From contig JBDRGY010000006.1 of the NCBI GenBank assembly GCA_043817315.1, forward strand, positions 18,077 to 82,076: a stretch of 64,000 bases of DNA. Reading direction: 5' to 3'. The stretch comes from Patescibacteria group bacterium (lineage in GTDB: Bacteria; Patescibacteriota; Patescibacteriia; JBDRGY01). Of the stretch, positions 1,865-22,239 are shown one piece after another (the stretch's first letter is position 1; every line of letters begins with the position of its first letter). The position numbers and the translations under genes were made by a program. A model generated the notes under the pieces. That model worked only from the letters and a program-made list of their open reading frames with translations. It searched no databases and was not told the origin of the DNA.

Positions 1865-1941
1865 GGGCATATAGCTCAGTCGGTTAGAGCACCACGCTTA
1901 TAACGTGGGGGTCGATGGTTCAAGTCCATCTATGCCCACCA
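1865..1941 (+). tRNA. tRNA-Ile, anticodon UAU (reads AUA), CCA encoded
   Basis: Cloverleaf hand-folded: acceptor GGGCATA/TATGCCC, D GCTC/GAGC, anticodon stem CCACG/CGTGG with loop CTTATAA, T GATGG-TTCAAGT-CCATC, discriminator A, CCA. Confidence 0.7.
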
Positions 1942-1950
1942 CTATCACAA

Positions 1951-2027
1951 GGGAGCGTAGCTCAGTTGGTTAGAGCGCTTGCTCGACACGCAAGAGGTCA
2001 GAGGTTCAAATCCCCTCGCTCCCACCA
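1951..2027 (+). tRNA. tRNA-Val, anticodon GAC (loop TCGACAC has C at position 33), CCA encoded
   Basis: Acceptor GGGAGCG/CGCTCCC, D GCTC/GAGC, anticodon stem CTTGC/GCAAG, T arm AGAGG-TTCAAAT-CCCCT (one A-C mismatch), discriminator A, CCA. Confidence 0.65.
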
Positions 2028-2059
2028 CCAAAAACCTCGTTGAGGATTTTTTTAATCAT

Positions 2060-2746
2060 ATGGGTGACTCTATTAAAATCATAAAAAACTGCGATGATTA
2101 TTTGGTAATTGTTAAGCCCTCCGGTTTAATCGTCCACCCTAACGCTCACCAGAAAACCAGCACCCTTGTTGATTGGCTTATCGAGAAATATCCTATTATC
2201 AAAGGTGTCGGAGAAAATGAAATGCGTCCCGGGATCGTTCACCGTCTAGACCAAGACGTATCCGGACTAATGGTGGTAGCTAAGAATAGCAAGAGCTTCT
2301 ATCATCTGAAAAAACAATTTCAAGATCGTTTGGTAAAAAAAGAATATTATGGGTTAGTGTTCGGGAAACCGGATCCAGATCAAGGCGAAATTACTCTATC
2401 AGTGGGCCGCTCTAAAACTGAACCCGGCAAATTTAAAATCAAGCATGACCAGACCGGCAAACCTTGTCTAACTCAGTATCAGGTGACCAAGAAATTCAAG
2501 AAGTTCGCCCTGCTGGACATCATTCTGAAAACCGGGCGCACTCATCAAATCCGAGTTCACCTAAAAGGCATTGGCCACTCTCTGGTCGGCGATAAGCTCT
2601 ATAAATCAAAAGGGGGGAAGACCAGTTTAGACAGGATTTTCTTACACGCCTACTCCCTGGGTTTTAACGACCTAAATGGTCAGTGGCAACAGTTTAAAAT
2701 TGATTTACCTCCTGATTTGAAAAGCTATTTGGCGAAATTGGAATAA
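2060..2746 (+). CDS. RluA-family RNA pseudouridine synthase
   Basis: Motifs LVIVKPSGLIVHP, RPGIVHRLDQDVSGLMVVAKN, HQIRVHL. Start moved to the first ATG after the tRNA; the ORF-track start at 1979 overlaps tRNA-Val. Confidence 0.8.
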   Translation: MGDSIKIIKNCDDYLVIVKPSGLIVHPNAHQKTSTLVDWLIEKYPIIKGVGENEMRPGIVHRLDQDVSGLMVVAKNSKSFYHLKKQFQDRLVKKEYYGLVFGKPDPDQGEITLSVGRSKTEPGKFKIKHDQTGKPCLTQYQVTKKFKKFALLDIILKTGRTHQIRVHLKGIGHSLVGDKLYKSKGGKTSLDRIFLHAYSLGFNDLNGQWQQFKIDLPPDLKSYLAKLE

Positions 2747-2799
2747 TTCCCACTATTTGCTAAAATATAACTAACCTAATCAGACTAAAAACGCATTAC

Positions 2800-3111
2800 A
2801 TGGAAAAAGAAGAAATTCAAAATCTAAAAACAGGACAAACCGTTCGAGTTCACCAAAAAATCAAAGAGGGTGATAAAGAAAGAACCCAGATCTTTGAAGG
2901 GATGATTCTGAAGAAGAAGGGCGGTAATCAAAAAAACGCCACCATCATGGTTAGAAAAATCTCTGAAGGAATCGGAGTAGAAAAGATTTTTCCTCTTTAT
3001 TCTCCCACTATTCCCAAGATAGAGGTAATTAAGCAGGCCAACACACGCAAAAGTAAATTATATTATTTGAGGACTTACAAGAAGAAATTAAAGGAGAAGG
3101 TAATCAAATAG
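2800..3111 (+). CDS. rplS: 50S ribosomal protein L19
   Basis: GQTVRVHQKIKEGDKERTQIFEGMIL...KISEGIGVEKIFPLYSP...KLYYLR matches the L19 family throughout. Confidence 0.9.
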   Translation: MEKEEIQNLKTGQTVRVHQKIKEGDKERTQIFEGMILKKKGGNQKNATIMVRKISEGIGVEKIFPLYSPTIPKIEVIKQANTRKSKLYYLRTYKKKLKEKVIK

Positions 3112-3182
3112 TTGGCGGGGCGGGGCGGAATATTTTGATATCTGCCTACTAACTTGGCAAAAGTTGATGTAGCTCCTAATAA

Positions 3183-3266
3183 GCCCAGGTGGTGGAACTG
3201 GTATACACACAAGCTTGAGGAGCTTGGCTCGACATGAGCGTGCGGGTTCAAATCCCGCCCTGGGCA
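3183..3266 (+). tRNA. tRNA-Leu, anticodon GAG, long variable arm, no encoded CCA
   Basis: Acceptor GCCCAGG/CCTGGGC, 3-bp D stem with long D loop, anticodon stem CAAGC/GCTTG with loop TTGAGGA, variable arm GCTC-GACAT-GAGC, T GCGGG-TTCAAAT-CCCGC, discriminator A followed by TGA. Confidence 0.7.
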
Positions 3267-3293
3267 TGAGGGTTTCTACCCCTCCGTCCGCAT

Positions 3294-3371
3294 GGGCGAT
3301 TAGCTCAGTTGGTTTAGAGCGCTTCGTTTACACCGAAGAGGTCGGGGGTTCGATTCCCTCATCGCCCACCA
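3294..3371 (+). tRNA. tRNA-Val, anticodon UAC, CCA encoded
   Basis: Acceptor GGGCGAT/ATCGCCC, anticodon stem CTTCG/CGAAG with loop TTTACAC, T GGGGG-TTCGATT-CCCTC. Confidence 0.85.
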
Positions 3372-3399
3372 CGACAAATAATTATTTTCATCAGAAACA

Positions 3400-3639
3400 A
3401 TGAACTACCTGTACGGTATTATTAGTATCATGATCGGAGTCATCTTGGTCTTGGGTACGGAAAACATCATGCGTATGTTCGGTCGAGTTGAGTGGGCAGA
3501 AACCCATATGAGCACTTGGGGTGGCTCCAGGATGTTTACTAAATTTCTTGGAGTTGGACTAATCTTTTTGGGTTTTATCTTTATGGGTGGTTGGTTCGGT
3601 CCCCTATTACGGGCATTATTCACTCCCACCGGTCAATAA
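3400..3639 (+). CDS. small two-helix membrane protein, hypothetical
   Basis: 79-aa ORF with two hydrophobic segments between tRNA genes. No recognisable family. Confidence 0.4.
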   Translation: MNYLYGIISIMIGVILVLGTENIMRMFGRVEWAETHMSTWGGSRMFTKFLGVGLIFLGFIFMGGWFGPLLRALFTPTGQ

Positions 3640-3643
3640 TCGA

Positions 3644-3719
3644 GGGCCCTTAGCTCATCTGGTAGAGCGCCGCCTTTGCATGGCGGAGGTGACCGGTTCG
3701 ATCCCGGTAGGGTCCACCA
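3644..3719 (+). tRNA. tRNA-Ala, anticodon UGC, CCA encoded
   Basis: Acceptor GGGCCCT/AGGGTCC with the G3:U70 Ala identity pair, anticodon stem CCGCC/GGCGG with loop TTTGCAT, T ACCGG-TTCGATC-CCGGT. Confidence 0.9.
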
Positions 3720-5759: not shown

Positions 5760-5773
5760 TAAGGGCTGACTAA

Positions 5774-5995
5774 TCAGCTCCTTGATGTCCTTAGTCCCTG
5801 GTCAATGTGGGACAAAGAAAGAGGCATGTCGTCTTCGGGAAACGGTGTCTCTTCAAGGGTAGGCGGTATCGGCTTGCCCAGCAGAGCTGCTTGGCGCTGA
5901 GAGTGCGCCAGAGCTCTAATTCGGGTGTGATCGCTCTTGGTCCCCTCTTTAGCTGTTTGCATTCCTCGATCCATCACTTCATCGATATCAGCCAT
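5774..5995 (-). CDS. hypothetical 73-aa protein, GC-rich cassette gene 2
   Basis: ORF preceded on the minus strand by AAGGAG SD (TAAGGAGTAATACAGATG). Acidic C-terminus. No recognisable family. Confidence 0.5.
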   Translation of the reverse strand: MADIDEVMDRGMQTAKEGTKSDHTRIRALAHSQRQAALLGKPIPPTLEETPFPEDDMPLSLSHIDQGLRTSRS

Positions 5996-6010
5996 CTGTA
6001 TTACTCCTTA

Positions 6011-6406
6011 TCACAGTCCCAGTTCATCAACGGTCTCAGCCACCGGAATCCATCTGGCCTGACCGACCGTTTCGACCGGCTGCGGCTGCTCGGTGCAGTT
6101 GTCCTGCAACAGCTGGTAAAGATCCGGTTCAGTGGTGAAGTAATCGAGTCCACCGGTCCACATCAGATAGCCCAAATAAACTTCCAGGGCCAGTATCTGT
6201 TCTGATCCTGAATACCCCCTGACAAAAAATCGGGGGGCGATAGGTACGTCGACTACGGGATCAAAGGCTGTTCTGGACTGCACTGCCTTGGTCACTTTGG
6301 CCAAAATAGCTGCATCGGTTATTACCATCTTGGGGGTCTGCTGATGCTCATAGGGCAACACTTTCCAGAACTCAATCCGGGTGATGGTCTGCCCATCATA
6401 CTGCAT
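6011..6406 (-). CDS. hypothetical 131-aa protein, GC-rich cassette gene 1
   Basis: Double SD (AGGAGG…GGAGGTCCAAATG). A promoter-like TTGACT-16-TATAAT sits upstream on the minus strand (-10 at ~6438-6443; the -35 falls inside the last codons of the 6466-7725 gene). No recognisable family. Confidence 0.55.
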   Translation of the reverse strand: MQYDGQTITRIEFWKVLPYEHQQTPKMVITDAAILAKVTKAVQSRTAFDPVVDVPIAPRFFVRGYSGSEQILALEVYLGYLMWTGGLDYFTTEPDLYQLLQDNCTEQPQPVETVGQARWIPVAETVDELGL

Positions 6407-6465
6407 TTGGACCTCCTTAGTTTTTGCCTCCTATAATGAACTTCTCTTGATTATATACTAAGTAG

Positions 6466-15308: not shown

Positions 15309-16334
15309 TCATTTTATCAACATAGCATCGCCAAATGAGTAAAAGCGGTATTGTTTCTTAGTGGCAATTTGGTAGCAGTCCAGAATAAAGCGACGGCCGG
15401 CCAGGGCCGAGACCAGCATCAACAAGGTTGATCTGGGCAGATGAAAGTTGGTAATCAGGGCGTCTAAATTCTTAAACTTATATCCGGGATAGATAAATAA
15501 GTTGACCCAGCCCCTAAAGCTTTTATTGGGTTTTTTTAATGCCGTCTCCAGGGTTCGGACCGAAGTAGTCCCCACTGCTATGACCCTGTTGCCTTTTTTC
15601 CTGGCAATTTTAATTCTATTAATCGTTTCCTTAGAAACCTCTACCCACTCTGGGTGCATACGATGCTTCTTTATATCTTTTACCTTAACCGGCTGGAAAG
15701 TGCCGAAGCCAACATGTAGAGTTACGTATTCTATTTGCACTCCTTGGCGTTTCAATTTATTCAATAAACTCTTGGTAAAATGCAACCCGGCAGTGGGGGC
15801 CGCTACCGAACCGACTTTATCAGCATAAACTGTTTGATAATCTCTTTTTGCTTTCTGCTTTTTGTCTTTTATTTTGATGTAGGGTGGCGTTGGTGCTTCC
15901 CCAATCTTATCTATGATTGGCCAAAAGTCCTTGGCAGATTTGTTAAGCTTGATGTGCCAAATTCCTCCTGTCAGTTGTTTAATAACTTTTCCTTCTAGAC
16001 CCTCCTTAAATTGTAATACCATTCCAGCTTTTCTGATCTTACCTCCGATTAAAACCTCCCAGGTCCGGCCTGTTAATTTTTTTAATAGAAATACCTCAAT
16101 TTTACCACCGCTTTCCTTTTTCCTGCCCTGGAGCCGGGCTGGGAATACTTTAGTATTGTTTAAAACCAATACGTCGCCTTTAACCAATAATTTTGGTAAA
16201 TCAAAAAAATGGCGGTGCCAAACTGTTTTTGTTTGGCGATCAACCACCATTAAGCGAGAATGGTCCCGGGGATAAACCGGTTTTTGAGCAATATATTGTT
16301 TGGGCAGGTTATAGTCGAATGAGGAAAGCTTCAT
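15309..16334 (-). CDS. queA: S-adenosylmethionine:tRNA ribosyltransferase-isomerase
   Basis: QueA N-terminus MKLSSFDYNLPKQYIAQKPVYPRDHSRLMVVDR…VLNNTKVFPARL and family-wide similarity. Confidence 0.9.
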   Translation of the reverse strand: MKLSSFDYNLPKQYIAQKPVYPRDHSRLMVVDRQTKTVWHRHFFDLPKLLVKGDVLVLNNTKVFPARLQGRKKESGGKIEVFLLKKLTGRTWEVLIGGKIRKAGMVLQFKEGLEGKVIKQLTGGIWHIKLNKSAKDFWPIIDKIGEAPTPPYIKIKDKKQKAKRDYQTVYADKVGSVAAPTAGLHFTKSLLNKLKRQGVQIEYVTLHVGFGTFQPVKVKDIKKHRMHPEWVEVSKETINRIKIARKKGNRVIAVGTTSVRTLETALKKPNKSFRGWVNLFIYPGYKFKNLDALITNFHLPRSTLLMLVSALAGRRFILDCYQIATKKQYRFYSFGDAMLIK

Positions 16335-16341
16335 TTAGTTA

Positions 16342-17007
16342 CTACAGCCCGGGAATCTTGGCTATAATTTCATCGGCCGTAGAAAAAAAGTTGATTTCTG
16401 ATAAATACTCCCGCTTAAAAACACCAATGTTTATCAAAGTGTCCAAGATAGGAATCCAGTAGCTGCTGACAAATACTTGTTGAGGGGCAGATTCTTCCTT
16501 GGTAATTTTTTTGTTAATCATGTGCACCACTGAACGAATCAGAATCTGAAAAGTACCGAGTTCTCCCTGAAAAATGACAACTACTGGAGGTGAAATTGCC
16601 ATCAGCTCTACTCTGGGGGCGGGCATGTTTACAATTGCCTTGGGACCGACTTTGTTAGCGTGCGGTTTCTGCTCTGTATACAATATTCCCAGACATTTGT
16701 CTTTAACTTCTTCGGCTACCGCTTTCATGATTCCGGTATCACGACCAGCATTGATAACACAGCCTCCCCAGTCTACTACTGCTTTGGCCAGAGCTATACC
16801 GTCCAGAGCGGCCGGATGATCCAATTTTAAGCCGCCTCCCCCGTTAATGGCCACTACCAACCCCTTGCTCTCGTAAGTAATCAAAAAAGCTTTGGAAGAA
16901 TCATGAACTGTAACCCAGGATTTGGTATTTTTGACCTCGGCCTCTTGGTCAATTTTTCCTAATACCCTTACCTTTCTTTGGGCAAATAAATTTTCGGCGT
17001 GTGTCAT
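16342..17007 (-). CDS. LOG/SLOG-like Rossmann-fold nucleotide-binding protein (TIGR00725-like)
   Basis: Gly-rich INGGGGLKL…DWGGCVINAGRDTGIMKAVAEE block resembles the LOG/DprA-related SLOG superfamily. Assignment is tentative. Confidence 0.4.
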   Translation of the reverse strand: MTHAENLFAQRKVRVLGKIDQEAEVKNTKSWVTVHDSSKAFLITYESKGLVVAINGGGGLKLDHPAALDGIALAKAVVDWGGCVINAGRDTGIMKAVAEEVKDKCLGILYTEQKPHANKVGPKAIVNMPAPRVELMAISPPVVVIFQGELGTFQILIRSVVHMINKKITKEESAPQQVFVSSYWIPILDTLINIGVFKREYLSEINFFSTADEIIAKIPGL

Positions 17008-17112
17008 ATGTTCTTAGGTTACTTATCTTGATTTTATAATAGCATAAATCTAGATTTTTCTCACAATACCCCCTGGCTTGACAAGATAAAAGGTGGTGTT
17101 ATTATAGGCTTG

Positions 17113-17583
17113 CATTCAGGTCCTGGCTCGGATCTCGAGTGGCACGAGGGGGCTAGCCTCTCATCCTTACACTGAGGGGCTAGCAAAAAGACAACAAGAG
17201 CCATTAGCTCTTTTCAATGTTTCCGCGCGTGACGTCCTATCCTCTGGGTAGATCAAGTCTGCGTTGCGGGGGTCGGCATCTGTCTCCACCGGCTGTCAGC
17301 GCTAAGGTGCTGATTGGAACGGCGGCGGGTGCGCGACGGTCGCTGCCTAGCAGTCCTGTTGGGCTGGGTGGTGACAAAAACCTGCCTCTTGGAAACCGGG
17401 GGTTGACGAGAGGCAGGGAATTTTTCTCAGCACGGACGCTGAGTGTGTAAGTAGACATCCGCGACTCTGTCGCCGCGGTTCTCTCTTGCCATCCGGCTCA
17501 GCGTCCAAAAAAATAGATCGCCGTATGGGGGAGATGGGCGATCCAAAGAGGAGCCTTCATTACTTCAGCTCCTCTATTTTTTT
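17113..17583 (+). ncRNA. unassigned GC-rich structured-RNA candidate (~470 nt), with promoter TTGACA-17-ATTATA at 17078-17106 and terminator at 17547-17583
   Basis: About 60-67% G+C in sampled lines against an ~40% background. Only short, overlapping, SD-less ORFs on both strands. Consensus -35 with a good -10 upstream. AGAGGAGC…GCTCCTCT hairpin plus T7 at the 3' end. Confidence 0.35.
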
Positions 17584-17593
17584 ACCTTAAATT

Positions 17594-18031
17594 TTATTCT
17601 CGGGAATAGGTGCCTATCAATTCTGCCTTGGCAATAGTATGTTCCTGTACTTTAGCGGCAAAATTATCCTTAGTGACATCAATTAATTGGTCGGTGTCTA
17701 AAGCATAAACCACAAAGACGTAATGGTGGGTACCTGCTGGAGGGCAAGGACCCCCGTAACTCTCCTTACCAAAATCATTAGCGATTTCGATAGCTCCGGT
17801 GGGCTTTTCTGCTCCTTCCTCTAGTTCGCTTTCCGAAACAGGAATGTTAATCATTACCCAGTGGACCCAATTGCCGGTAGGGGCATCAGGGTCCATGCAG
17901 GATAGGGCGAAACTTTTTGTAACTTCTGGGTACTCACTCCATTTGAGATGGGGAGACCAATCCTCGCCGTCACAAGTGTGCTTGGTGGGGATGACCTGGT
18001 CAGGCTCAAAATCGTTGGATTGTAAAATCAT
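17594..18031 (-). CDS. YbhB/YbcL-family phosphatidylethanolamine-binding protein (PEBP)
   Basis: PEBP signature CMDPDAPTGNWVHWVMINIP…GPCPPAGTHHYVFVVYALD. Confidence 0.75.
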   Translation of the reverse strand: MILQSNDFEPDQVIPTKHTCDGEDWSPHLKWSEYPEVTKSFALSCMDPDAPTGNWVHWVMINIPVSESELEEGAEKPTGAIEIANDFGKESYGGPCPPAGTHHYVFVVYALDTDQLIDVTKDNFAAKVQEHTIAKAELIGTYSRE

Positions 18032-18043
18032 AGAATAAAGACT

Positions 18044-19168
18044 CTAAATGTTTTTATCAAAGCGAAAGCTTTTCCAGGCGATAAAGAAAGTAACTACTAC
18101 CCAAGCTAAAATTATCCATAATTGACTGGTAACTTCTGCCAATCCCACTCCGTCATTGGCTATTTTGCGTAAAGCTTCAATTAGGGGAGAAAGGGGCAAG
18201 TATTTGGTAACTGCGTAGGCCCAGGATGGCAACATCTCTGGGGCGAAGAAAACTCCGGATAGAAACATCATGGGCATGGCAATAATATTGGACATTGATT
18301 CGGCTGCGTTAACTGATTTGGCCCATCCAGCTACTGAAAAACCCAGATTGAGAAAAATGATAGTGCCCAGAAAGCTTAAAAGATAAATATAAAAGTAGCT
18401 GCCGAACACCTGTACATTATAAAGCAGTCGGGCCACTAAGATTATCAGGGTTATTTGGATAGCGGCGATAATTAAATAGGAAAGCACCTCGGCAATCAAG
18501 AAGTTTCTGACTTTAAGAGGGGTGGCTGTTAATCTTTTTAGTAATCTTTGTTCGCGGTATTTGGTAATCTCCGAGGCAATGCCAATAATTGCCGCCATCA
18601 TAATAGCCATACCCAGAATACCGGGCATGATGACGTCTATATAATTGATGTTCTTGGATTCAAAGGCTTCTGGTTGAATGGCGAAGTATTCAGGTGCCTG
18701 GGTAATTTCTTTATTCAACCCGTCAATAAATTGATTAAATACGCTCAGCACCAGCTGATTAGTTGTGATATTGCTTTCGTCGTAATAAATTTGGATTTCT
18801 ACAGGTTTGCTAACGGTCGTTTCCAGCCCGGGTTGGGTCGGGTCTAAAACAGTCGGGGCAGGAACGGTAAATTCTGCCGGGATAATCAGAATAAAATCCA
18901 GCTCCCCCTGCCGCAGCATATTCTTGGCATCCTCTTCGTCTACCACCGGTTCGATGGTTAAAAACTCAATCTCTTCAATGCCTGATTTAAATTGCTGCGA
19001 TATTTCATTGTTGGCTTTATCGATAAAAGCAATGCTGGAGCTGGCCATGCCTTCAAAGTCAAACAGGCCAAAAATGACGATGAACATAGTGGGAAAAGCC
19101 AGGGTCCAAAACAAAGCTTGCTTATTGCGGAAAGTCATTTTAATTAATGCCCAAAGTAGTTGAACCAT
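18044..19168 (-). CDS. ABC-2 type transporter permease
   Basis: N-terminal TM helix, large extracytoplasmic region, then five C-terminal TM helices. Immediately downstream of an ABC ATPase gene. Confidence 0.75.
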   Translation of the reverse strand: MVQLLWALIKMTFRNKQALFWTLAFPTMFIVIFGLFDFEGMASSSIAFIDKANNEISQQFKSGIEEIEFLTIEPVVDEEDAKNMLRQGELDFILIIPAEFTVPAPTVLDPTQPGLETTVSKPVEIQIYYDESNITTNQLVLSVFNQFIDGLNKEITQAPEYFAIQPEAFESKNINYIDVIMPGILGMAIMMAAIIGIASEITKYREQRLLKRLTATPLKVRNFLIAEVLSYLIIAAIQITLIILVARLLYNVQVFGSYFYIYLLSFLGTIIFLNLGFSVAGWAKSVNAAESMSNIIAMPMMFLSGVFFAPEMLPSWAYAVTKYLPLSPLIEALRKIANDGVGLAEVTSQLWIILAWVVVTFFIAWKSFRFDKNI

Positions 19169-19169
19169 A

Positions 19170-20102
19170 CTATTCTTTTAACTTCTTCCCGGTTAATTCT
19201 AAGAAGACGTCTTCCAAATCAGCGTGAGTGACCTCTTCATCTAATATATTTATCCTTTTGTTTTTGGCCCAATTGATCAGTTTGGGAAAAGTTTCTGTTA
19301 CTTTGCCGACTCTCATGTGGTATTTGTTGTGACCCATCTGCTCTACTTTGACTACTCCCTCTATCTTATGTAACTCTGCCAAATCAACTTTCTGGTCTAC
19401 CTGAAAGTCTATCCGGCCTGAAGCGTCTAGTTGATTAATCAAATTTATCGGAGTATCTAGGGCTCTGATTCTGCCAGCGTCCATAATCCCCACTCGATCA
19501 CACAATTCTTGAGCTTCCTCCATGTAATGAGTGGTAATAATTACTGTTTTGCCCTCTTTGTTTATCTTTTGGATAAACTCCCAGATGTTACGTCGGGCTT
19601 GAGGGTCTAAACCAGTGGTTGGTTCGTCAAGAAAGGCTATCTTGGGATCATTAACCAAAGAGGCGCAAATGGAAAAACGTTGTTTTTGACCTCCGGACAA
19701 ATGACGAACCAGAGATTTTTTCTTTTCCGTCAGGTCGACAATTTCTAACAATTTCATCGGGTCCATTTGTTTTTTATAGAAGGTGCCGAAAAGTTTTAAA
19801 ATTTCTTCCAAGGTCAAATAATCAAAATAGGCAGAAGCTTGTAATTGTACTCCTATTCTTTCTTTGATCTTATTCACTTCTTTTTGGGGATTTATCCCCA
19901 AGACTGATATCTCGCCTTTGGTGGCCTTTTGGATTCCTTCAATAATTTCTAGAGTTGTGGTCTTGCCGGCACCATTGGGCCCCAATAAACCAAAAACTTC
20001 TCCTTCTTTGACCTCAAAGGAGACGTCATCAACTGCTTTCAAAAATCCCCCTTCCGGTTGGGGAAATTGTTTGGTCAAATGTTTTACTTCGATAACTGGC
20101 AT
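19170..20102 (-). CDS. ABC transporter ATP-binding protein
   Basis: Walker A GPNGAGKTT, signature LSGGQKQR, Walker B DEPTTGLD. Confidence 0.85.
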   Translation of the reverse strand: MPVIEVKHLTKQFPQPEGGFLKAVDDVSFEVKEGEVFGLLGPNGAGKTTTLEIIEGIQKATKGEISVLGINPQKEVNKIKERIGVQLQASAYFDYLTLEEILKLFGTFYKKQMDPMKLLEIVDLTEKKKSLVRHLSGGQKQRFSICASLVNDPKIAFLDEPTTGLDPQARRNIWEFIQKINKEGKTVIITTHYMEEAQELCDRVGIMDAGRIRALDTPINLINQLDASGRIDFQVDQKVDLAELHKIEGVVKVEQMGHNKYHMRVGKVTETFPKLINWAKNKRINILDEEVTHADLEDVFLELTGKKLKE

Positions 20103-20108
20103 TTGAGT

Positions 20109-21122
20109 TTATACTAATTGCTTCTGGCTCTTTTGTAAACCTAAATGTTGATAGGCTTTATCGGTAACTACTCGACCTCGTGGGGTTCTGGCTAAAAAAC
20201 CAATTTGCAATAAAAACGGCTCATAAACGTCTTCGATAGTGGCAATCTCTTGGCCCACTGAAGCGGCAATGGAATTGACTCCAACAGGTCCTCCCTGATA
20301 GCGATCAACCATGGTTTCTAATATCTTGCGGTCTACCGCGTCTAGACCCTTGGCATCAATATCCAACATATTTAAGGCAGCTTGGGCTAAATCCAGAGTA
20401 ACCTGACCATCTGCCTTTACCTGGGCGTAGTCTCTAACCCTTTTTAATAGTCGATTGGCCACTCTGGGTGTCTTCCTGGCCCTTTTAGCTATTTCCACCA
20501 AAGCATCCTTGGCCACTTTTACTTTTAAGATTTTTGCAGCTCGTTTTATTATCTTCTCAATATCGTCGTCGCTGTAATAATCCAAGTGAAAAACTGCCCC
20601 GAATCTGTCCCTAAGCGGAGAGGAGACTGAACTGACCCGCGTAGTCGCTCCGATTAAAGTAAAACGGGGCAAATCCAGTCTGATGGTTTGGGCCGATGGG
20701 CCTTTTCCCACCACCATATCGATCACGTACTCCTCCATGGCCGGGTATAATACTTCTTCTACTGTTCGGTGTAAGCGATGGATTTCATCGATAAACAAAA
20801 TGTCGCCGTCTACCAGATTGGTAATAATTGCGGCTAAATCACCGGCTCGTTCGATAGCCGGACCAGAGGTGATCCTAATGCTTGATTGCATTTCATGGGC
20901 AATCACATGAGCCAAGGTTGTCTTGCCCAAGCCAGGACAGCCGTGCAGCAAAACGTGCTCGATGGGCTCTTTTCTTTTCTGGGCAGCAGCCATGAAGATT
21001 TGCAGATTCTCCTTGATTTTTTCCTGGCCCACATATTCCGCCAATTGCTTGGGTCGTAAAGTCAGGTCAAGGGTCTTGTCCTCTTCTTTCTCCTCGGAGG
21101 TAATTATCCTTTCTTCAGACAT
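20109..21122 (-). CDS. ruvB: Holliday junction branch migration ATPase RuvB
   Basis: LRPKQLAEYVGQEKIKENL…LLHGCPGLGKTTLAHVIAHEM…ILFIDEIHRL and a C-terminal winged helix; typical RuvB. Confidence 0.9.
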   Translation of the reverse strand: MSEERIITSEEKEEDKTLDLTLRPKQLAEYVGQEKIKENLQIFMAAAQKRKEPIEHVLLHGCPGLGKTTLAHVIAHEMQSSIRITSGPAIERAGDLAAIITNLVDGDILFIDEIHRLHRTVEEVLYPAMEEYVIDMVVGKGPSAQTIRLDLPRFTLIGATTRVSSVSSPLRDRFGAVFHLDYYSDDDIEKIIKRAAKILKVKVAKDALVEIAKRARKTPRVANRLLKRVRDYAQVKADGQVTLDLAQAALNMLDIDAKGLDAVDRKILETMVDRYQGGPVGVNSIAASVGQEIATIEDVYEPFLLQIGFLARTPRGRVVTDKAYQHLGLQKSQKQLV

Positions 21123-22105
21123 TATTTTTTCTTTTTGGCTTTATTAAATCTTTTTACTCTTATTATTCCAGATCCGACAATCACCTCTACCCCTCTTTTT
21201 TCTAGTTCATCCAACAATAAATTCATCCCGATGGAGTCCGAGGCCATGTGCCCTGCTACAATAATGTTTAAGTGTTGTTTCTCCGCCTCCTCTTTATTCT
21301 CTTCTTTCATGTGCATACTAACGATAGTACCGATACCGGCCTGGGATAATTTTTCATATAGCTCGATAGCCCCGGAGGTACCGCCGGTTACTTCTGTCAA
21401 AGCGATCTTACCGCAATAGCGCTCCAGTCCTCCGGTAAACAAGGTGGGGCCGGCCTTCTGTTTCATGGCTTCCTGGTATTCGGGAATTGATTTTAATAAT
21501 TTTAGCAGGTCTTTAACAAACTCCAATTTTTTCTGGTTACGATCTATCAACTTTTTGAGGTGTCGTTGCACTAAATTATCTGCAGGAGTATGTACGCAGA
21601 AGAGTGGAAAGCCAAGTTTGTCAGCGGCATCAATAACTTTGTTGTGATTAATCGGTGCTAATGACCTGGATACCGCGGCAATCCTCTTGCTCATCAGATC
21701 TTCGGCCAAGTGAACCGGCACTCCGTACATGGCCAGCATTTCGGTTTGCATCTCCATCACTTCATACATGCCTGCCAGGGCTTTGCCCAGAGGATGGTGC
21801 GAGATTACTAAATCAATTGGATTTTTGGCGGACAGTTTGTCTACCAGCAGCATCTCAGAGACATCAATATCAATTCCCGCATAAACTCGCTTAATCTTTT
21901 TGTCAGGGTCGTCTGTAAAATAACGGGTGTCCGAATAAGGGTTGGTTAACTTTTCCAGATCGAACTCCGCTTTTTGGTCTTTGGGCAGGTTTTGATAGCG
22001 CTCCTTTTCCTGTTTCAGTTTACGAAACACCCCTTGATTAGGTCGCATATCTGCGTCAATGCCCTTTTTAACGGCTAGGTCATAGATTTGCTTAATTGTC
22101 ATCAT
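21122..22105 (-). CDS. Nif3-like dinuclear metal centre protein (tentative)
   Basis: DLVISHHPLG and IIVAGHMASDSIG motifs resemble the NIF3/YqfO family. The N-terminus is atypical. Confidence 0.45.
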   Translation of the reverse strand: MMTIKQIYDLAVKKGIDADMRPNQGVFRKLKQEKERYQNLPKDQKAEFDLEKLTNPYSDTRYFTDDPDKKIKRVYAGIDIDVSEMLLVDKLSAKNPIDLVISHHPLGKALAGMYEVMEMQTEMLAMYGVPVHLAEDLMSKRIAAVSRSLAPINHNKVIDAADKLGFPLFCVHTPADNLVQRHLKKLIDRNQKKLEFVKDLLKLLKSIPEYQEAMKQKAGPTLFTGGLERYCGKIALTEVTGGTSGAIELYEKLSQAGIGTIVSMHMKEENKEEAEKQHLNIIVAGHMASDSIGMNLLLDELEKRGVEVIVGSGIIRVKRFNKAKKKK

Positions 22106-22239
22106 CTGGCATGTGAGTTAATGTTTTAGTCTTTATATTCTATCAGGTTTGGGCTAAAAAATCAATAAAAATGGCTAATTTTAGCTAAATTTAACCAAAG
22201 GCCCTTGACAGGTGTTAGATTCTATGATAATATTTTTTG

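Follow-up and report, generated by a model that had tools for sequence, protein, structure and literature searches.

A GC-rich intergenic island in a Patescibacteria contig: a putative structured RNA gene of a candidate clade-restricted family

The island, its signals and its anatomy

Orphan large non-coding RNAs (ncRNAs) have been approached through GC-rich intergenic regions (the GC-IGR approach; Stav 2019, PMC6429828; Brewer 2021, PMC8632094; Narunsky 2024, PMC11109978), and the orphan RNAs OLE, GOLLD, ROOL, raiA/ModT and HEARO are intergenic, longer than 300 nt, far above their genomes in G+C content and equipped with a promoter and a terminator of their own. The same is found in a 64,000-nt stretch of a Patescibacteria group bacterium (assembly GCA_043817315.1, contig JBDRGY010000006.1, positions 18,077 to 82,076), hereafter called the window, where a putative RNA gene of 472 nt lies at 17112-17583 on the plus strand, with a G+C content of 0.59-0.60 against 0.43. 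We regard it as very probable that this GC-rich island is a functional structured RNA gene. It probably specifies an independently transcribed and highly structured ncRNA of about 470 nt, a single long RNA that acts in trans and belongs to an undescribed, clade-restricted family. As far as can be seen, that family is limited to one small clade of Patescibacteria (candidate phyla radiation, CPR) near Komeilibacteria, and with three sequences known it is a candidate and not an established family. The original prediction had left the choice between an undescribed large structured RNA and an unusual version of a housekeeping RNA. The first of these has gained ground, with a conserved promoter and terminator, homologues in two further lineages, compensatory changes, negative folding z-scores and no match in Rfam. 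Rfam 15 and our literature searches gave no description of this RNA or of a CPR-specific structured RNA of such a kind, and neither Patescibacteria nor candidate phyla nor Saccharibacteria turned up in a word search of the 50-genome paper (PMC11109978).

The G+C-rich island is real, at 0.545-0.605 over 17100-17499 in 200-nt windows and with a mean of 0.43 for the 64 kb, although the 67% that had been given for it applies to single 60-nt lines only. At 300-nt resolution the RNA locus is the highest G+C island in the whole window (0.59 against a mean of 0.430). It had been described as a gap between convergent genes, which is not the case: both flanking genes lie on the minus strand. The RNA is divergent from a SLOG-like gene (16342-17007, 221 aa, weak match to PF18306) and convergent with a PEBP/YbhB gene (17594-18031, 145 aa, PF01161). 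A GC-rich island flanked by a promoter and a terminator is found in the same slot, by the 3' end of the PEBP/YbhB gene, in two diverged lineages represented by the loci L012 (identical in L003, L013, L014, L031 and L038) and L011 (identical in L039; from two NCBI assemblies). In comparison with the window the PEBP protein is 66% identical in L012 and 72% in L011. The SLOG protein of L012 is 77% identical, and the RNA lies there between the 3' end of PEBP/YbhB and the start of SLOG/QueA; L011 is without the SLOG gene, and its RNA sits between the PEBP and QueA genes. There is also a near-identical strain, L001/L002, with 12 differences in 5.9 kb (window 16251-22181 compared).

A strong promoter of the sigma-70 type would drive the RNA, and a hairpin followed by U7 would end its transcription. 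The promoter scan placed TTGACA, a 16-nt spacer, an extended TG and TATTAT at 17078-17105 on the plus strand (11 of 12 matches), the same site as had been read earlier as TTGACA-17-ATTATA. L012 and L011 also have TTGACA, and a -10 element equally far from a (C/T)TTGC start. When the three promoters are aligned (TATTAT/TAAGAT/TACGAT, 6 nt and a G), the predicted transcription start is the G at 17112, seven nt past the -10 element. The predicted intrinsic terminator at 17547-17583 is indeed present in the sequence: AGAGGAGC, 13 nt, GCUCCUCU, an A and U7 in the RNA, or AGAGGAGC/GCTCCTCT followed by A and T7 in the DNA, with a single occurrence in the window. It was absent from the list of the terminator scan because its 13-nt loop exceeds the 8-nt limit of the tool. 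The stem AGAGGAGC/GCUCCUCU and the following U-rich run are kept in both L012 and L011. The predicted core of the RNA is about 395 nt and the full transcript to the terminator about 470 nt. The 3' tail also holds an A7 run and a hairpin GAUCGCC...GGCGAUC (17515-17542) which, read from the sequence of the minus strand (17507-17546), is a hairpin followed by U7, and which is likely the intrinsic terminator of the PEBP/YbhB gene, a passenger in the RNA. The inverted repeat I3, A7UAGA/UCUAU7, brackets both 3' hairpins, and the last two hairpins would therefore form a bidirectional terminator module for the convergent RNA and PEBP transcripts.

On the upstream side, a block at 17032-17063 lies outside the RNA in the divergent promoter region; within it is a perfect palindrome, AAATCTAGATTT (17047-17058). 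All 32 nt of the block agree with the L003/L012 species (100% identity), despite saturated third codon positions next door. A promoter-like site on the minus strand (17064 to 17036), predicted for the SLOG/QueA operon, overlaps this block, with the palindrome, whose centre is some 59 nt before the RNA start, inside its spacer. From its sequence the block looks like a candidate operator common to both divergent promoters.

The RNA would be built of four parts, all read here on the plus strand. The first is a 5' domain in which the hairpins H1, H2 and H3 stand at fixed positions, joined by an A-rich linker. In the minimum free energy (MFE) fold H1 is the 5'-terminal hairpin at 17113-17141 (CAUUC-A-GGUCC / GGAUC-UC-GAGUG), and in all three species a hairpin begins at most 5 nt from +1. 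H2 (17152-17184, inverted repeat I2) is a 12-bp hairpin, GCUAGCCUCUCA / UGAGGGGCUAGC, with a 9-nt pyrimidine-rich loop, UCCUUACAC, and occupies RNA positions 39-74 in each species. A direct repeat had been noticed here, and GGGGCTAGC is present at both 17149 and 17176; these copies are the arms of one hairpin, H2, and arise because GCUAGC is self-complementary. It is followed by the single-stranded A-rich linker S1, AAAAAGACAAC (17185-17195), kept between the window and L011 (AAAAAGCAAC), and by H3, a small 6-bp hairpin at 17196-17212 with a U-rich tract, UUUUCAAUGUUU, extending to 17224. RNA positions 76-103 hold H3 in each of the three species, and the sequence of its stem differs between them. 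The segment 17185-17224 places H3 between an A5 run and a U-rich tail, and the same arrangement is seen in L011 and, weaker, in L012.

The second part would be a variable set of central G-U-rich hairpins, H4, H5 and H6 (17222-17375, MFE fold). This region is 160, 75 and 156 nt long in the three species and differs in content too, H6 (17339-17375) being the only central hairpin with a recognisable counterpart in the homologues. The third part, the most conserved element, would be the almost invariant rod HC at 17376-17425, with an 11-bp stem (17381-17391 / 17407-17417), a 15-nt loop and an A5/U5 extension helix (17376-17380 / 17421-17425) across a 3-nt bulge, or about 16 bp in total. In all three species the stem of HC is nearly invariant and the loop exactly 15 nt. 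Read from the sequences, the extension covaries: AAAAA/UUUUU in the window, AAGG/CCUU in L012 and CGGA/UCCG in L011. The fourth part would be a multi-branched 3' domain (17434-17506) closed by the 10-bp long-range helix H7, GGACGCUGAG at 17434-17443 with CUCAGCGUCC at 17497-17506 (inverted repeat I4), and containing the small hairpin GCGAC-UCU-GUCGC at 17461-17473. H7 closes the 3' domain in all three species, with a length of 8-11 bp. A kissing loop or pseudoknot between the HC loop and the A-rich linker or the H3 loop was considered and dropped, as the complementarity is 4-5 bp only and at chance level.

Conservation among three lineages

In the adjacent PEBP gene the third codon positions are only 45-47% identical and thus saturated, and the global identity of the RNA among the three lineages is 0.47-0.50, close to shuffled controls. 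Despite this saturation the G+C excess, the promoter, the terminator, HC and the positions of H1, H2, H3 and H7 have been retained. The extensive secondary structure that had been suspected from complementary segments is borne out by an MFE of -215.6 kcal/mol and a z-score of -6.2 against dinucleotide shuffles; against the same controls the homologues give -5.2 (L012) and -8.1 (L011). Each domain in each species beats its dinucleotide shuffles, with z between -1.8 and -5.4: the 5' domain alone reaches -3.3 to -4.3, and even the variable central region -1.8 to -3.8. By strand, the MFE in the window is -186 kcal/mol for plus against -142 for minus, with 24 against 6 G-U pairs, and in L011 it is -197 against -172, with 19 against 11 G-U pairs. 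This bias towards folding of the plus strand agrees with the direction of the promoter in both, and the strand-specific G-U pairs and folding energies in two of the three species argue for selection at the RNA level. At the level of the sequence, then, the element is conserved in position, and its helices have been kept by selection on the plus strand.

Comparison of homologous intergenic regions had been proposed as a check, and the L012 and L011 regions gave compensatory pairs with six double changes in H7, from three sequences. Among the three species, six of the ten pairs of H7 have both partners changed and still pair, while slid controls pair at only about 40%; in HC all 11 pairs are kept and two have changed on both sides. 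A spliced alignment of HC and H7, from three sequences with helix arms picked by hand, has 96.8% of its cells paired and eight pairs changed on both sides, and when the partner is slid by 1-3 columns the pairing falls to 37-57%. RNAalifold, given an unsupervised MAFFT alignment of the homologues, recovered H2. Plain MAFFT alignments were not structure-consistent for H1 and H3, and their pairs were left uncounted because picking the stems by hand would be circular.

Of the 12 differences that separate the window from the strain L001/L002, five fall within the 472-nt RNA, which makes up 8% of the compared length and is thus a substitution hotspot. All five are structure-neutral and no helix is broken: a U to C change at 17115 turns a U-G pair of H1 into C-G, two substitutions in L001 lie in the A-rich linker S1, one difference is just 3' of HC and one is an indel in a loop.

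There are several points that speak against our interpretation and they have to be weighed together. The excess of strain differences in the RNA has a p of about 0.002 by a binomial estimate, and it could mean relaxed constraint. The share of paired cells is inflated because the helix arms were chosen by hand, and with three sequences the statistics are weak, so that we take the covariation of HC and H7, as read from these sequences, to be supportive rather than conclusive; the family is represented by three species-level sequences and one close strain. L012 has no strand asymmetry in its folding energy. A covariance model built from the single sequence (R1) missed both L011 and L012. The transcription start and the ends of the RNA are predictions from sequence, and we only infer that it acts in trans by binding protein. 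The picture of one long RNA may also be wrong, as H3 and its U-tract may stop part of the transcripts.

The last point leads to a different view of the locus as a composite, in which a small RNA of about 105 nt (H1-H2-H3) ends at H3 and the U-tract, and everything downstream is read-through or a separate element. With an A5 run on one side and a U-rich tail on the other, H3 resembles the bidirectional terminator module at the 3' end, and the scan flagged its reverse complement as terminator-like on the minus strand; from this likeness to a small bidirectional terminator H3 with its U-rich tract is possibly a weak internal terminator. It is moreover the 5' domain that is best conserved in position, H1-H3 having the same coordinates in all three species, and its z-scores show that it folds well alone. 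Against this, the H3 stem has 6-7 bp with only 2-3 G-C pairs, the U-tract is 3-4 nt and interrupted, and in L012 the arrangement is weaker still. The promoter scan predicted no second promoter upstream of HC, and the highest conservation is seen in HC, H7 and the strong terminator, which implies that transcription reaches them. We consider a composite locus unlikely, and a single long RNA the better account.

It could also be argued that there is no RNA function at all, and that the island is a decaying fragment acquired by horizontal transfer or hairpin DNA between genes, similar to repetitive extragenic palindromes (REP) and bacterial interspersed mosaic elements (BIME) or to miniature inverted-repeat transposable elements (MITE). 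The very narrow distribution would fit such an origin, as would a similarity between species no better than shuffled controls, the excess of strain differences and the GCCUCU/AGAGGC-type stems, which recur in several hairpins and are found in all three RNAs. However, a neutral fragment at such saturation would lose its G+C excess, promoter, terminator and helix positions, and all of them are kept; in addition, G-U pairs and folding energy favour one strand in two of the three RNAs, which points to selection on an RNA. There is no other copy of any segment of the RNA in the 64-kb window, which led us to reject a dispersed REP/BIME- or MITE-like palindrome, and Tandem Repeats Finder (TRF) detected no tandem repeat or periodicity. 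Membership of a mobile or defence island was likewise rejected, the neighbours being core chromosomal genes and there being no match to phage, plasmid or viral contigs. An island without function is to our mind quite improbable, and selection for an RNA remains our explanation for what has been kept.

The three RNA-bearing loci form an exclusive clade in the PEBP tree, with L015-L022 as the sister clade. Neither the RNA nor a comparable GC island was found at the slot in that sister clade, in L004 (SLOG 70% identical), in L040 (QueA 70% identical), or in Komeilibacteria and other loci (L041-L044). The same holds for the contigs of the closest PEBP homologues (P0007, P0009) and QueA homologues (P0067, P0070, P0071), where the slot is without the RNA and without a comparable GC island. 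In the GTDB genomes, a search with the SLOG-like gene as protein anchor found no relative, and the HC DNA pattern gave six chance matches, for instance a plain terminator in a Saccharibacteria contig. A degenerate HC pattern returned only the already known loci and unrelated palindromes from the JGI metagenomes, and neither it nor a pattern of the 5' domain matched any viral contig. BLAST against phage and plasmid collections gave no match to the RNA. A model built from the homologues themselves (R2) found no further copies. Since the pattern scans and BLAST gave nothing further, the RNA family is known from three species-level lineages only.

Known RNA families, coding genes and guide arrays

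The covariance-model scan that had been suggested as a check was run, and no Rfam 15 family matched the element, even at E<=10 (window and L039). At the gathering score the whole window contains six tRNAs only, and ten related loci gave tRNAs and chance matches only. With permissive filters and E<=10 the element gave chance matches only in the window and L039, where E-values are multiplied by 4227 families, so that matches below about 13-15 bits are not displayed. OLE, GOLLD, ROOL, raiA, HEARO and the other large RNAs in Rfam 15 gave no match. Neither did the models of SRP (signal recognition particle) RNA and 6S RNA, even at E<=10 in the window and L039, and the fold in the window is multi-branched and not a single rod as for those models.

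The housekeeping RNA that deserves most thought is RNase P RNA, a universal RNA which might be present here in an extremely diverged and unrecognisable form. In 10 of 35 closed CPR genomes the RNase P RNA falls below default thresholds, and many have missing or extended helices (Lui et al. 2021, PMC8172020). The size of about 395 nt, the high G+C content and the stand-alone transcription unit would fit, no RNase P RNA was found elsewhere in the 64-kb window at the Rfam gathering score, and matches below about 13-15 bits would escape listing. On the other hand, RF00010 and RF00011 (bacterial RNase P RNA) gave no match in the window or L039 at the gathering score or, above that floor, at E<=10, whereas the diverged CPR forms keep recognisable features and are recovered by RF00010 at low scores (PMC8172020). 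The folds of the three RNAs lack terminal pairing of the 5' and 3' ends (P1-like), and a single block is conserved throughout, the local hairpin HC, which is not a long-range P4 helix. In RNase P RNA that helix is formed by the strands CR-I (GGAAAGUCC) and CR-V (CCGGCUUA), the conserved regions I and V. A fuzzy search of the three RNAs with these motifs found no CR-I, and for CCGGCUUA only single near-matches at non-homologous places in two of the three, so that a CR-I/CR-V-like block in all three homologues is absent. A likeness by eye to the P4 strands, AGGUCCUGGCUC and CCGGCUCA, was dropped, as the positions in the three RNAs are not homologous. The global identity is like that of shuffled controls, unlike a catalytic core, and the nearest relatives do not have the RNA in their syntenic slot. 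Taken together this makes RNase P RNA very improbable.

Transfer-messenger RNA (tmRNA) fares no better. ARAGORN, including permuted forms, found none in the window, L011, L012, L039 or L014, and the Rfam models of tmRNA gave no match at E<=10 in the window and L039. In the motif search the plus strand showed no T-arm motif and the three RNAs no acceptor-like block in common; tag frames of the tmRNA kind, read from the sequences, were not conserved between species and were discarded. The lack of RNase P and tmRNA signature blocks, together with an identity like that of shuffled sequences, makes a housekeeping RNA unlikely, and this half of the original prediction is disfavoured: no RNase P, tmRNA, SRP or 6S match at E<=10 in two species, and a slot that is empty in the nearest relatives.

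A hidden small protein-coding gene, or several, is highly improbable. Only short open reading frames (ORFs) overlap the island on both strands, as had been noticed, and they reach at most 77 aa on the plus strand and 73 aa on the minus strand. In addition a 65-aa gene was called in the L011 element, and L012 has an open frame of 105 codons. The ORFs differ however in strand, frame and position between the species and have no Shine-Dalgarno sequence, and a six-frame comparison found no frame-consistent similarity, the best E of about 5e-4 being between antisense frames. In L001, L002 and L012 the gene callers predicted nothing in the region.

Hardly credible is an array of guide RNAs (CRISPR- or TIGR-like) or the RNA of an RNA-guided mobile element (omega RNA, bridge RNA or retron). 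The idea was worth considering because TIGR arrays, including stem-loop variants, have been reported in CPR bacteria (PMC12045711) and the element is built of many hairpins. The absence of tandem repetition or periodicity speaks against it, as does the absence, within about 10 kb, of Nop/Tas, Cas, TnpB/IscB, IS110 and reverse-transcriptase genes; the genes close by are QueA, SLOG, PEBP, ABC-transporter, RuvB and envelope genes, and no HEARO or CRISPR repeat family of Rfam was matched. The ncRNA gene remains the reading with which the locus agrees in general: as judged from sequence, it appears to have its own promoter and terminator, no conserved ORF, and a structure conserved in orthologous loci.

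Genomic context, possible role and comparison with known systems

The RNA lies among core chromosomal genes: NIF3, RuvB, ABC transporter, PEBP, SLOG, QueA, SpoIID and envelope polysaccharide genes. This gene order is also found in L039 and partly in the Komeilibacteria locus L041, and the closest named relatives of QueA are from Candidatus Komeilibacteria (61-63% identity). The slot between RuvB and QueA is variable in the clade (L041 8270-11029, L014 1-1753 and window 17594-22105 compared). Komeilibacteria (L041) have one FliS-like gene of 130 aa there. In the L012 species and in the window PEBP, the RNA and SLOG are present, accompanied by a 158-aa gene in the former and by two ABC-transporter genes in the latter.

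Elsewhere in the window a second G+C-rich patch is found at 5760-6420 (0.53-0.55). It carries two small minus-strand ORFs with a strong Shine-Dalgarno sequence, one at 6011-6406 (131 aa, no Pfam match) and a shorter one ending near 5790, and may be a module of two genes that was acquired, for instance a toxin-antitoxin pair. Five tRNA genes are clustered at 1865-3719, one of them a tRNA-Ile with the anticodon TAT (UAU) at 1865-1941, found by ARAGORN; reading AUA with a tRNA-Ile UAU is uncommon among bacteria.

The genomes of CPR/Patescibacteria are tiny and have little non-coding DNA. That a unit of about 470 nt with a near-consensus promoter and no ORF is kept in such a genome implies a function worth its cost. 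The product would most likely be a stable RNA acting in trans, a protein-binding scaffold or a regulatory RNA rather than a universal housekeeping ribozyme, because its helices are conserved with almost no single-stranded sequence, its identity is close to that of shuffled sequences and its distribution is very narrow. Because of its invariant stem and fixed loop length, HC is a candidate recognition site, most plausibly for a partner protein or for processing by RNase III. It is possible, although doubtful, that with this RNA a new class of large RNAs has come to light, one with a defined tertiary fold, a role as a ribonucleoprotein core or ribozyme, and HC as the element recognised by a protein or RNase, and specific to an ultra-small symbiotic CPR lineage. 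If transcription and structure are confirmed, an uncultivated lineage would have contributed a new class of large RNA, and the HC rod would be a defined target in the search for its partner; if the RNA were truly an unrecognisable housekeeping RNA, it would change how the completeness of CPR genomes is judged.

Some details of the homologues touch on a regulatory role. In L011 the 12-nt GCUUCCGUCUGU is repeated (L011 1661-1684 and 1627-1638; RNA positions 8-19 and 53-64), one copy being at the apex of H1 and partly in the 5' arm of that hairpin, the other in the H2 loop, as if the same binding site were presented twice. The 3' domain of L012 contains CACCUCCU (L012 1951-1958; RNA positions 337-344), which is the same as the core of the anti-Shine-Dalgarno sequence of 16S rRNA. 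Such anti-Shine-Dalgarno-like loops are suggestive only.

Among described regulators, RNAIII of Staphylococcus aureus is about 500 nt long and has many independent hairpins, pyrimidine-rich loops and a strong promoter and terminator of its own. It is restricted to a genus or clade, evolves fast in sequence and pairs with Shine-Dalgarno sequences. RNAIII and the window RNA agree in length, hairpins, promoter and terminator, clade restriction, fast evolution and pyrimidine-rich loops such as that of H2, and by analogy the GCCUCU/AGAGGC stems and such loops are reminiscent of Shine-Dalgarno-pairing regulators. They differ in that the window RNA has no embedded peptide gene, and there is no sequence relationship. 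With tmRNA it has in common a GC-rich stand-alone RNA of about 360-400 nt that evolves fast outside the tRNA-like domain, an A-rich stretch, there after a stable hairpin as here, and stop codons in the loop of the small hairpin H3 (two of the three species), but it lacks a tRNA-like domain, a T-arm and an acceptor/CCA end, and its candidate tag frames show no conservation. The diverged RNase P RNAs of CPR bacteria (PMC8172020) share with it the host group, size range, high G+C content, stand-alone gene and scores below the Rfam gathering level; the window RNA differs from them in having no match at E<=10, no long-range pairing of the P4 type and no terminal P1 in its fold. The closest likeness is to OLE, GOLLD, ROOL, raiA and HEARO, which also have many helices with compensatory change and neighbours that do not reveal the function. 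Those RNAs have conserved cores and occur in hundreds to thousands of species, in contrast to three for the window RNA, which is almost without conserved single-stranded nucleotides, has a CPR bacterium as host and has no Rfam match. The RNA is thus best described as a new family of an already known kind, the orphan GC-rich intergenic RNAs (PMC6429828, PMC8632094, PMC11109978).

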